From: a virus
Lineage: Duplodnaviria > Heunggongvirae > Uroviricota > Caudoviricetes
Strand: one strand, 5' to 3'
DNA: 11,749 nt
IMG/VR virus record: IMGVR_UViG_2897328257_000005
Span: 1-11,749 of that record
This document shows, piece after piece, positions 3,001 through 6,000 of the stretch (positions are counted from its first letter, which is position 1; each line of letters begins with the position of its first letter). The position numbers are program-made.

Positions 3001-6000
3001 TTCTCTGTGGTTACTTACAGCCAGGTGATTTGGTAATCTGCATTCATGCCGTAACAACAGGTGTTCAGCGACGCTGACCACCAGCTGTTGCGACAAACGG
3101 TTATTTGCCGTTAAACTATTCATGCGTTAGTTTCTCCACAACCAGAAGCAATCGACGCCACGACGCCCGGAGCTGCACACTCGCGGGCGTTACTCTTTTC
3201 TGGAGCGCAGAAGATTTTGTAGACCAGTGCTGCATGCTCCTGGAGCTTCGAAATTGAAAGATACAGTTCGTCGTTAATTGCTGTCTTCTCATGCGGTTCC
3301 ACTACCCCATCTTCGATTGCCGAACGAATCTGCTTTGAGTAACTCCCGATCTGTTCGATGACTTCCAGCAGACGCTGGTTAATATCGGCGTTGTCCACAT
3401 CCTCGACGTCAGGAAGAGACACAAAGACGCCATTTGCAGACTGCGCCACAGCGTCAGCAATGAAGTGAGTTCCACCAGCACGTTGTAAAATCATTGCCCA
3501 TCCCAGCGGGAAAATCTGATCGCCATCTGCACGAAGGCGGTTGAATAATGCGTTCTCTGTTACATCCAGCCACTCAGCAGCTTCAGCGTAACCCCCCGGC
3601 AACGCCGCGATAGTTTTTCTGACAGCTTTCACGTACCACTCAGGCTGTTTTTCCACTTTCCAGTGATGATTACCCACGGCTTACCTCCTGTTCCTGTGGT
3701 TTAAACCCATTCTGGTTTTGGCTAGATTGAAAACGTGCCGGATAAAGAATCTGCATTTCGCTGATTTCACCCTTAAAAAAATTGGCCAGACGTTCTGCAA
3801 GATCGATAGATGGAATTTGTTCCAGTCTTTCAATACGACTCAGCGTCGCTGGATTGACCTGAACGCCCGCAGCAACATGCTGCAAAGTAAATCCGTGCGC
3901 CTTACGCACATTCCGTAATGGTGATTGCATATAACCTCCACATATTGCGTGATGAGCATATTATTTCACGCAAATATTTTGCGCAAGTTGATTTGCTTAA
4001 CGCGCAATAAAGAAATGTAATAAACGCATGAACATAGGAAATCGAGTCAGACAACTTCGCCAGGCGAAGAACATGAAAATCGCCGATCTCGCTGAAGCAA
4101 TAGGAGTGGATGCGGCGAATATCTCGCGCCTCGAAACAGGTAAGCAGAAACAATTCACTGAACAAGCCCTGAGTAATATTGCCAGGAGCTTAGGTGTTGA
4201 TATTGCTGATCTCTTTACCTCAGACCTCAAAAGTAATACTGTATGTAAAAACAGTATTAGTGAGGATGTTGCGCAGGTGAAGGATGTATTCCGTATTGAA
4301 ATGCTGGATGTCAGTGCCAGTGCGGGAAATGGCCTTATCCAGGGCGGTGATGTCATTGATGTGATTCATGCCATTGAATACAGAACTGATAATGCTGTAT
4401 CGATGTTTGGTGGACGACCAGCAAATCACATTAAAGTTATCAACGTTCGTGGGGACAGTATGTGTCCAACCATTGAGCCAGGAGATCTCATCTTCGTTGA
4501 TATCAGTATCAATCAGTTTGATGGGGATGGTATATATGTATTTGGTTTTGATGATAAAATTTACGTCAAACGACTGCAAATGATACCTGATAAACTGCTG
4601 GTAATTTCTGATAATCAGATTTACCGCGAATGGGGAATTACCAGCGAAAACGAACATCGGTTTATGGTCTTTGGAAAGGTCTTAATCAGTCAGTCACAAA
4701 CCCTTAAGCGACACAATTAACCCCCTACCTCAATATCAATTAGCCACCAGAAGGTGGCTTTTCATTACTCACCAAATTGCATATCTCGCAATAAAAACAC
4801 TTGCATAATGCGCAACTTCATTTTATCTTTCTTTCCAGACATACAAACAAGGTACTAACAAAATTTGGTTGTAACACGGCGTATGGCACATGCGTCGTTA
4901 GCGGTCTGGGGACGTTAAAGGGGACAATCCACTCCTTGCTCGGGCAAACAAACCAGGTAGCCGGAATGTGCAAGTCAATGATGATGCTGATAAGACGCCT
5001 AACCAGCGTGGCGGTTCGGTTTGACACCTGGGAAGAGACCAGGGTGCAACGATGAGGGCATTTATGGAACCGCGACAAAGTGTGGTGCCGTAACTGGCTA
5101 AGTGCTCTCAGCGTTGTGGTGAATGCGCAGGCTGATGCGCGAAAGACATTGCAGCTATTGCGGAAAAGAGCTGTTCGGCGGGGCAATTAAACGCCCGTGA
5201 GAGTCTGAAATAACCGCAAGCCGGAGATCAGCACCGGTCACCACAACAGCCACTGCTTTGGCGGTACCAGTTTGTACACTTGCTTCCGGCTGGTACCGCT
5301 CTTTTTACAAAACAGAGAAGAGCATCACCGGACGACGGGCTCATAACCCAATCCATCCGGGCGGCTGCCACCGCAGGTGTTCTTCTCTGTTTTGTGGAGA
5401 AACCAACCGACCTTGCAGGGTCGATATGATGAGGAGCAACAAAATGGCTAGCGAACGCAGTACTGATGTGCAGGCATTTATCGGGGAGCTGGACGGCGGC
5501 GTATTTGAAACAAAAATCGGCGCAGTTCTCAGTGAAGTCGCTTCCGGTGTGATGAACACGAAAACCAAAGGTAAGGTCTCGCTCAACCTGGAAATCGAAC
5601 CGTTTGATGAGAACCGTGTGAAAATCAAACACAAACTCTCATATGTTCGCCCGACTAACCGCGGGAAAATTTCCGAAGAAGACACCACCGAAACGCCGAT
5701 GTATGTCAATCGCGGTGGTCGCCTTACTATTCTGCAGGAAGACCAGGGACAATTACTGACTCTTGCCGGTGAGCCTGACGGAAAACTCCGCGCAGCAGGT
5801 CATTAATATCGTTCTTAATTAACTGATTATTTATCTCATCACTGAATATCTTAATATAGTGAGGACTTATTATGTCTCAGAACTTAGACGCAACCGCAAT
5901 TAATCAAATCCATGCCCTTATTTCTGCTCAGGGTGTTAATGAAATTATCAGTAAGATTGGTGCCGACGCAGTGGCATTACCTGAAAATTTCCGCATTCAT

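Follow-up and report, generated by a model that had tools for sequence, protein, structure and literature searches.

DicF is among the oldest known bacterial small RNAs (sRNAs), and its locus in the Qin prophage of Escherichia coli K-12 has been studied since 1989. The RNA pairs with the translation-initiation region of ftsZ, blocks division and binds Hfq, and it has been studied as an isolated 53-nucleotide (nt) molecule of a decayed prophage; a study from the 1990s reportedly found the dicF region to be conserved among prophages. We analyzed here a dicF-type locus in an intact-looking phage immunity region, namely positions 4767-5443 of an 11,749-nt stretch of Caudoviricetes DNA (positions 1 to 11,749 of IMG/VR record IMGVR_UViG_2897328257_000005, hereafter the window), which lie between a cI-like repressor gene and the first early-left gene. 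Our results favor, with a probability of about 0.65, the view that 4767-5443 is a DicF-type, nuclease-processed, multi-RNA non-coding leader of the early-left operon. Rather than a single element, this region consists of successive plus-strand RNA modules behind a candidate repressor-controlled promoter. The leader measures about 470 nt, ends with the DicF-type hairpin, and is composed of folded RNAs that are separately conserved and separately exchanged. The modules are the following, in coordinates of the window (tRNA, transfer RNA; bp, base pairs; RNase, ribonuclease).

4877-5043, plus strand: domain A, a double-pseudoknot RNA of about 170 nt
4877-4881/4893-4897: helix P1 of domain A
4886-4891 with 4966-4971: pseudoknot PK1 of domain A
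4905-4909/4953-4957: helix P2 of domain A, around a variable insert and followed by a variable hairpin
4995-4998/5006-5009: helix P4 of domain A
5001-5004 with 5018-5021: pseudoknot PK2 of domain A
5027-5031/5039-5043: helix P5 of domain A
5047-5062/5100-5116, plus strand: helix P6, about 17 bp with a variable tip, putative RNase III site
5116-5244, plus strand: scaffold B, a cloverleaf of tRNA shape
Within scaffold B: closing stem of 7 bp, GUGGUGA/UCACCAC
Within scaffold B: D-like hairpin, GCGC-AGGCUGAU-GCGC
5141-5219: insert arm of scaffold B, 77-80 nt
Within scaffold B: T-like hairpin, CCGG-AGAUCAGCA-CCGG
5250-5306, plus strand: DicF-like sRNA or intrinsic-terminator segment, with a single-stranded 5' part, a hairpin at 5260-5300 and a U-run at 5302-5306
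5307-5395, plus strand: element C, closed by a clamp
5307-5326/5376-5395: clamp of element C, 20 bp, extendable to 5302-5400, putative RNase III site
5328-5360: arm 1 of element C
5336-5349: initiator-tRNA-like anticodon stem-loop CGGGCUCAUAACCC (CGGGCTCATAACCC) in arm 1
5361-5374: arm 2 of element C
5408-5423, plus strand: covarying hairpin, all 6 pairs with a compensatory change

In K-12, a single transcript, which has no promoter inside it, is the source of a 190-nt species produced by RNase III and of the 53-nt DicF produced by RNase E (bioRxiv 10.1101/2023.04.14.536235). The 3' end of K-12 DicF is set by a terminator or by RNase III, at 72 nt, and the dicBF operon reads through the DicF terminator (PMC5069750). 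It was the record of phage P1, in which the ban operon opens with an annotated 'dicF-like region', that led to the comparison with the Qin locus. From ydfC to dicB, the Qin order is a 22-bp P6-type helix, a cloverleaf RNA in a slot, dicF, and a 21-bp helix enclosing a scaffold, and dicF occupies there the position of 5250-5306 in the window. The window shares with the DicF/dicBF leader of Qin (RF00039) its position, in a repressor-controlled leftward operon of a lambdoid phage or prophage, as well as the order of its parts: a long helix, a cloverleaf slot RNA, a UUGGCGG...CCGCC-U5 hairpin and a long helix around a further folded RNA. In contrast to Qin, the window has domain A, has no ydfABC-like small open reading frames (ORFs) upstream and no dicB downstream, and it differs in the type of its slot RNA and in that of the element after the hairpin. 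The K-12 cloverleaf type also replaces scaffold B in phages that are otherwise identical to the window.

The relationship with DicF is carried by the hairpin itself. An earlier reading of the window, made from the sequence alone (the first-pass annotation), had called a terminator hairpin at this place; the hairpin is present, with a stem of 11 bp (5260-5270 / 5290-5300) and a minimum free energy (MFE) of -21.2 kcal/mol (z-score, z, -3.5). It belongs to a family of which we found 47 distinct members, 46 of them folding as one hairpin, with 3-6 pair types at each of the stem positions 6-11. We built a covariance model, R1, on 20 hairpins of other phages, leaving out K-12 as well as the window type. 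It matches window 5258-5306 at 34.6 bits (E-value 1.6e-9) and the 3' part of K-12 dicF (L226 2896-2940) at 31.6 bits, with no further match in the 22 kilobases (kb) searched. By this independent model the window hairpin and DicF are of the same family, and the two share UUUGGCGGUAyCAGUUU...CCGCyCUUUUU. The first-pass suggestion that the region may encode a prophage small RNA was therefore right in substance. A CUUCC motif is present in the loop of the window hairpin, and UCCC or UCCUU is found in many members of the family.

With this layout, the K-12 species of 190 nt and 72 nt are explained by cuts in two conserved helices. Judging from the reported lengths, the 5' end of the 190-nt species, counted back from the terminator, would fall within the 3' strand of the K-12 P6-type helix, and the 3' end of 72-nt DicF within the 5' strand of the K-12 post-dicF helix. 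In the window, scaffold B and the hairpin together measure 191 nt, as compared with the 190 nt of the K-12 species, and the counterparts of the two K-12 RNase III helices would be, by analogy, P6 and the clamp of element C. Since this clamp corresponds to the K-12 post-dicF helix, the 15-nt inverted repeat at its base (5307-5321 / 5381-5395; MFE helix of about 25 bp, -60.8 kcal/mol, z -5.5) is most likely an RNase III processing helix. The repeat had been noticed in the first-pass annotation; it is real and its second arm had been placed correctly at 5381-5395, but the first arm lies at 5307-5321 and not at 5306-5320.

The locus might then work as follows. Once the cI-like repressor leaves the two operators, transcription would begin near 4837, and polymerase would pass domain A, P6, scaffold B and the DicF-like hairpin. 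Part of the transcripts, with a primary length of about 470 nt, would end in the U-run (5306). The others would extend across element C and reach the yfdP/yfdQ-like genes, in keeping with K-12, where such read-through is needed for the expression of dicB. As in the K-12 pathway, RNase III would cut P6 and the clamp of C, and RNase E would release the DicF-like RNA at a length of about 55-60 nt; scaffold B may be cut on its 5' side by RNase P, as would be the tRNA-Arg that other phages have in this slot. The DicF-like RNA would most likely be an Hfq-dependent regulator acting in trans, by base pairing, on host messenger RNAs at induction, with targets that may differ from those of DicF, and domain A, scaffold B and element C would be independent, horizontally exchanged structured RNA modules.

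Several observations weigh against this reading. The hairpin loop, of 19 nt, is unusual for an efficient intrinsic terminator. The Rfam DicF model (RF00039) has no match in the window at its gathering threshold, nor at E<=10 when 901 nt or 131 nt were searched, and it scores 76.7 bits on K-12 dicF in the same search; as R1 does match, the window RNA is a relative of DicF that stands outside the curated family. DicF pairs with its targets through its 5' single-stranded part and its loop, and both differ in the window copy. In a crude duplex test against ftsZ (-60..+40), the window RNA reached -32.0 kcal/mol, and 57% of shuffles were as good; even true DicF is not significant in this test (17%). 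With no better-than-shuffled pairing to ftsZ, the function of DicF should not simply be assumed for the window RNA. The candidate promoter matches only 7 of 12 consensus positions and falls under the scan threshold. The K-12 dicF locus is devoid of domain A, and the analogy with DicF is therefore uninformative on the role of this domain. Finally, the RNase III and RNase P sites of the window are proposed by analogy and from helix length.

Region 4767-5443 is non-coding. The first-pass annotation had seen no convincing ORF there and in particular no N-like arginine-rich ORF, and both statements hold: no N-like arginine-rich ORF was found in 4767-5443, and across 40 homologues the proportion of variable columns is even over the three codon positions (0.65 / 0.65 / 0.62), with length differences relative to the window of 0, 1 and 2 modulo 3 in 15, 14 and 10 homologues, respectively. 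Given this even variability and these random indel lengths, the open frames are not genes. The longest one, of 122 amino acids (aa) on the minus strand (4818-5186), is a 'hypothetical' protein in phage mEp460, and minus-strand coding as annotated in this phage (mEp460_037, 122 aa, and mEp460_036) is the alternative it raises. Many homologues do keep long frames on the minus strand, the median length being 100 of the possible 126 codons. On the other hand, frame 4818-5186 has a TTG start codon with no ribosome-binding site noted, the third-position excess expected of a gene is absent and indels are random modulo 3, homologues swap whole modules across the frame, and the K-12 homologue is transcribed in the opposite sense. 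Taken together, we regard minus-strand coding as having a negligible chance of being correct. In phage mEp460 (L001), mEp460_037 (6098-6466) and mEp460_036 (6508-6651) correspond to window 4818-5186 (minus strand) and about 5228-5371 (minus strand) and run antisense to domain A, scaffold B and element C; both annotations are probably spurious.

The first-pass annotation had also described strong RNA structure, which is borne out by covariation (domain A and element C) and by local folds, but not by the energy of the whole stretch: over 473 nt, the folding energy has a z of only -1.3 on the plus strand and -2.2 on the minus strand. As the energy of the whole region is unexceptional, the case for structure and for the plus strand rests on covariation and on homology with tRNA and DicF. 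Compensatory base changes across dozens of phages support the structures of A, B, C and the hairpin, and the covariation expected across related phages is found, with 12 compensatory pairs in domain A and 15 in element C.

Loci were sampled by exact-word scans of IMG/VR with two words, yielding at least 120 loci each, and these scans gave at least 115 distinct versions of domain A. A hand-built structure was tested on alignment A1, made of 40 diverse phage copies: 96.3% of the cells are paired, compared with 27-49% when the partners are slid, and the covariation score was reached by 0 of 500 shuffles. PK2 covaries (CACC/GGUG <-> AACC/GGUU). PK1 is invariant in A1, a set that was seeded on the 3' strand of PK1; in a diverged copy found with a covariance model (L187), PK1 is CAUCAU/AUGAUG instead of GCACAU/AUGUGC. 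A long-range alternative to helix P1 proposed by RNAalifold was rejected, the P1 pair 11-23 switching G-C <-> A-U in 19 of the 40 sequences.

Sub-pieces of the region match unrelated phages in BLAST searches against phage genomes. Window positions of about 4863-5040 match phage P1, just 3' of the tRNA-Ile gene (trnI) and 5' of ban; Uetakevirus phages, directly 5' of tRNA-Arg and in promoter-to-terminator units among structural genes; and the Klebsiella Lastavirus SopranoGao, at the genome end. A 17-mer scan of species-representative genomes gave 46 matches, 21 of which are chance matches in unrelated phyla, about the number expected; the genuine copies of domain A are all from Enterobacterales (Escherichia, Klebsiella, Citrobacter, Kosakonia, Enterobacter and Kluyvera, plus one short mis-binned contig). 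A DicF-like hairpin follows within 800 nt in 80 of 114 domain-A loci, mostly at 250-350 nt, among the matches listed; together with the promoter-like sequences seen 5' of domain A in other phages, this suggests that the modules form a single gene.

The position of domain A bears on the idea of the first-pass annotation that the leader acts like the put RNAs of phage HK022. These are about 70 nt long, with two hairpins, and are likewise encoded in cis between the early promoter and the first terminator of a lambdoid phage without N. The leader, and most plausibly domain A, would then make polymerase resist the terminator at 5306 and later ones, in place of N. Domain A does lie about 40 nt downstream of the candidate promoter and upstream of the terminator-like hairpin, the region holds no N-like ORF, and a promoter-like sequence stands directly 5' of the domain in several other phages. 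However, domain A sits in mid-operon after trnI in P1, and the Uetakevirus units that carry it have a second terminator after it. The window modules thus also occur outside early-operon leaders, the window has no other strong plus-strand terminator downstream, and domain A, with its about 170 nt and two pseudoknots, is unlike put RNAs in size and fold. Moreover, the K-12 dicBF operon reads through the DicF terminator with no domain A (PMC5069750). These facts speak against the put analogy, and we hold antitermination of this kind to be improbable.

Downstream of domain A, helix P6 has an MFE of -33.3 kcal/mol (z -4.6), and its stem recurs across phages with compensatory changes (GAGCA/UGCUC <-> GGACA/UGUCC <-> GAACA/UGUUC <-> GCGCA/UGCGC, the last in K-12); this recurrence refers to clear cases only, a generic scan of all loci being too noisy. 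In many scaffold-B loci, among them L133, L135, L137, L140, L216 and L220, a recurrent block ...CTGGCGCACTGGCCCGGTGTGATTAATAATGGGCAC... lies just 5' of P6 with no domain A, and it may be a different 5' module type.

Scaffold B brings the locus close to tRNA. P4 CI RNA and the C4 RNA of phages P1 and P7 are tRNA-shaped phage RNAs processed by RNase P, and scaffold B is likewise tRNA-shaped: it shares with tRNA a 7-bp closing stem, D-like and T-like hairpins, a central arm and the position of a tRNA gene, and its predicted fold is a four-way junction. It differs from tRNA in having no canonical T-loop, anticodon loop or CCA, and in having an exchangeable insert and, in place of the elbow, a 6-bp loop-loop pairing. 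Indeed, the loops GCUGAU and AUCAGC are complementary and change jointly to GCUAAU/AUUAGC in another locus (L079). Across loci, the D-like stem covaries (GCGC/GCGC <-> GCAC/GUGC <-> GGCG/CGCC), as does the T-like stem (CCGG/CCGG <-> CUGG/CCAG <-> CAGG/CCUG <-> UUGG/CCAA). A 40-mer around 5101-5141 matches dozens of unrelated phages of Klebsiella, Salmonella, Erwinia and Edwardsiella. Among the matches listed, 123 copies sharing a 22-nt 5' frame comprise 96 versions of module B, which differ mainly in the insert, of 12 to more than 160 nt. The insert of the window itself recurs with 100% identity in phages of lambdoid and P1-like type and in 47-kb phages. Because of this identity across unrelated phages, we consider the inserts to be discrete, mobile and conserved units, not junk.

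Other interpretations were discarded. An HNH-type CxxC reading of 5130-5190 has a broken frame, and the conserved 40-mer at this place is the 5' half of scaffold B; a cobalamin B12 box, a hammerhead CUGAUGA core and a purine-riboswitch-like three-way junction, all seen by eye, gave no match with the corresponding Rfam models. The window has no tRNA or transfer-messenger RNA according to ARAGORN and no Rfam tRNA match at E<=10. In an IMG/VR contig (L213), the B insert holds an apparent complete tRNA, with D-arm GCTCAATCGGTAGAGC and T-arm CTGGTTCGATTCCAG, which looks like a tRNA nested within a tRNA-shaped scaffold.

The association with tRNA genes invites another explanation, in which the locus is a large stand-alone phage non-coding RNA comparable to GOLLD or ROOL, and domain A with its tRNA or tRNA-shaped cargo is the functional unit. 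Such an RNA might serve as a decoy or sponge for tRNA-recognizing host factors (anticodon nucleases, synthetases, processing enzymes) or in a higher-order assembly; the DicF-like hairpin would be mainly a terminator, which is compatible with a DicF-type leader. Among the matches listed, a true tRNA-Arg(UCU), starting with GUGG, occupies the slot just 3' of P6 (...CGUU) in about 30 loci, and tRNA-Ile2(CAU) ends just 5' of domain A in about 20 P1-like loci. Scaffold B is cloverleaf-shaped with a nearly invariant frame around its exchangeable insert, element C reproduces a 14-nt stretch of the anticodon arm of initiator tRNA, and the locus is transcribed first in the early operon, a position typical of counter-defence functions. 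GOLLD and ROOL are also of phage or prophage origin, several hundred nt long and rich in pseudoknots, they lie near tRNA islands, and the GOLLD linker sometimes carries a tRNA (PMC12286853). The resemblance is in kind only: no match to GOLLD or ROOL was found by sequence or with their Rfam models, and the hosts differ, being Enterobacterales here. Furthermore, the window modules are apparently cut apart, and A and B are separable, with domain A in 7 of 100 scaffold-B loci and a tRNA within 1 kb of scaffold B in 8 of 101 (among the matches listed). The decoy idea is a speculation. We thus consider a stand-alone RNA of this kind rather unlikely, with perhaps one chance in a handful.

Element C was tested on alignment A2, of 18 variants: 93.4% of the cells are paired, compared with 42-47% when slid. 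The 14-mer CGGGCUCAUAACCC in its arm 1 matches, at every position, the anticodon stem-loop of E. coli initiator tRNA-fMet, a tRNA sequence that was confirmed in all 5426 genomes. The tip of arm 1 is a CUCAUAA loop on three G-C pairs, and this loop is invariant in 16 of the 18 variants. The mimic in element C could possibly titrate a reader of the initiator anticodon arm or exert translational control of the thrS-operator type on the first gene. The anticodon-arm motif was also seen in the P6 tips of two other loci (L030 and L059).

The K-12 element between dicF and dicB (L226 2933-3142) scores 34.4 bits with the STnc100 model (RF02076), the gathering threshold of which is 47. PasD/STnc100 RNAs are prophage sRNAs of about 200 nt found near Q and late-region genes (bioRxiv 10.64898/2026.05.13.724894). 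They resemble the elements described here in being prophage-borne structured RNAs, and the K-12 counterpart of C is the one that matches below threshold; the window, by contrast, has no STnc100 match at E<=10, and its locus is an early-left leader and not a late region. The sub-threshold match in K-12 suggests that prophage sRNAs of the STnc100/PasD type belong to the same modular system.

The modules are common in enterobacterial phages, yet unannotated. A 471-nt query (4840-5310, with A, P6, B and the hairpin) matches, at least partly, 1851 of 5426 complete E. coli genomes and is covered over at least 80% of its length in 460 of them; among the matches listed, annotation under these matches is limited to short overlaps, at the 3' end, with 'hypothetical protein' genes. 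Alternatively, the segments might be DNA-level recombination linkers at mosaic boundaries, conserved for module exchange and not for an RNA fold. Identical boundary strings (ACAAC...GTTGT, GTTGTGG...CCACAAC) surround the exchangeable segments, the same insert is 100% identical in unrelated phages, and the locus is at the boundary of the immunity region, where lambdoid mosaic joints are common. Linkers would not explain strand-specific compensatory changes that keep G-U-tolerant pairing, pseudoknots and loop-loop complementarity, and the homologous region of K-12 gives a transcript from which discrete RNAs are cut (bioRxiv 10.1101/2023.04.14.536235). A role of the segments as mere linkers is accordingly very improbable in our opinion.

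Strings of the type GUUG, CAAC, GUUGU and ACAAC border every module (4869-4872, 5047-5050, 5113-5117, 5245-5249). Pairing among them could occur in more than one register, so as to close A, P6 or B, and they are either a conformational switch or a footprint of module exchange. In phage P1 (L002, AF234172), the whole leader from Pban to ban (142-2800) is full of such modules; besides tRNAs, it contains:

282-383 of P1: 'dicF-like region'
About 556-633 of P1: P6-type helix
1311-1420 of P1: scaffold B
2509-2696 of P1: domain A

The P1 ORFs plp and upl (963-1532, minus strand) overlap scaffold B, and their annotations are probably spurious. Several 'hypothetical protein' annotations lying over such RNAs, with mEp460_036/037 and P1 plp/upl among them, are thus probably wrong.

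Given its relationship with DicF, the locus is a variant of a known one. The first-pass annotation had regarded the region as a candidate for an undescribed element; this does not apply to the dicF locus and its 190-nt precursor, both of which are known, but it stands for A, B and C. At gathering thresholds and at E<=10, no Rfam 15 model matches domain A, scaffold B or element C in the window and related loci, where the only Rfam 15 matches in all are C4, isrK, tRNAs, K-12 DicF and the sub-threshold STnc100. A sequence-string search gave no literature match for A, B or C, and keyword and sequence-string searches, whose coverage did not extend to the 1990s study of dicF flanks, found no published description of domain A or scaffold B. 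What is new here is the structure of the modules, a wider phage family for the DicF hairpin, and classes A and B, which have no entry in Rfam 15; A and B each have a substantial chance of being a new class of RNA. A bolder view, to which we give a little less than even odds, is that A and B are undescribed functional RNA classes, spread horizontally through lambdoid, P1-like, Uetakevirus, Lastavirus and other enterobacterial phages, that DicF is only what forms the 3' tail in a decayed copy of the larger system, and that the role of the system is not base pairing but, for example, that of tRNA-like decoys or cargo early in infection. The locus offers testable candidates in this respect: a tRNA-shaped scaffold with an exchangeable insert, an initiator-anticodon mimic 5' of the first early gene, and a double pseudoknot linked to tRNA-Arg and tRNA-Ile.

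The region as a whole is a lambdoid immunity region of the mEp460 / cdtI / SfV / CPS-53 class. Its genes and control elements outside the modules are listed below (HTH, helix-turn-helix; OL, left operator).

3120-3677, minus strand: CII (CP76) gene
3670-3930, minus strand: cro-like HTH gene
3993-4007: third TTGCN7GCAA palindrome, in the cI/cro intergenic region
4028-4720, plus strand: cI-like repressor gene (HTH and Peptidase_S24)
4742-4759: hairpin 3' of the repressor gene (cI terminator)
4777-4791 and 4801-4815: operator-like palindromes TTGCN7GCAA, in an OL-type control region
4801-4829, plus strand: candidate early-left promoter TTGCAT-17-TATCTT, overlapping the second operator
5431-5436, plus strand: Shine-Dalgarno sequence GAGGAG of the yfdP-like gene
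5444-5806, plus strand: first early-left gene, yfdP-like, 120 aa, ATG at 5444-5446
5872-6696: DUF2303 gene, followed by an Ead/Ea22 gene

The 724 nt from cI to the first early-left gene are 99% identical to their counterpart in phage mEp460, and this interval is also found in many Stx2 and other lambdoid phages. The label 'protein YfdP' of the first early-left gene is the annotation in a related phage. Operator-like sites and a candidate promoter had been proposed in the first-pass annotation. Three TTGCN7GCAA palindromes are present in the window versus 0.56 expected (at least three in 4 of 200 shuffles); the promoter is weak by its consensus score. The TTGC..-17-TATCTT arrangement is also seen 5' of domain A in other phages. 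From the sequence, the cI-like repressor would bind the palindromes and transcription would start near 4836-4838.

Elsewhere in the window, Rfam matches for C4 antisense RNA (82.4 bits; 2575-2662, minus strand) and isrK (57.7 bits; 2687-2763, minus strand) lie within an ORF of 383 aa (1972-3123, minus strand) that is named 'Rha' in mEp460, and they fall in its Pfam Phage_ASH segment (aa 117-213). Either two RNA genes are located inside a coding sequence, or the N-terminal part of the ORF, and perhaps the Pfam family, is a translated RNA locus.

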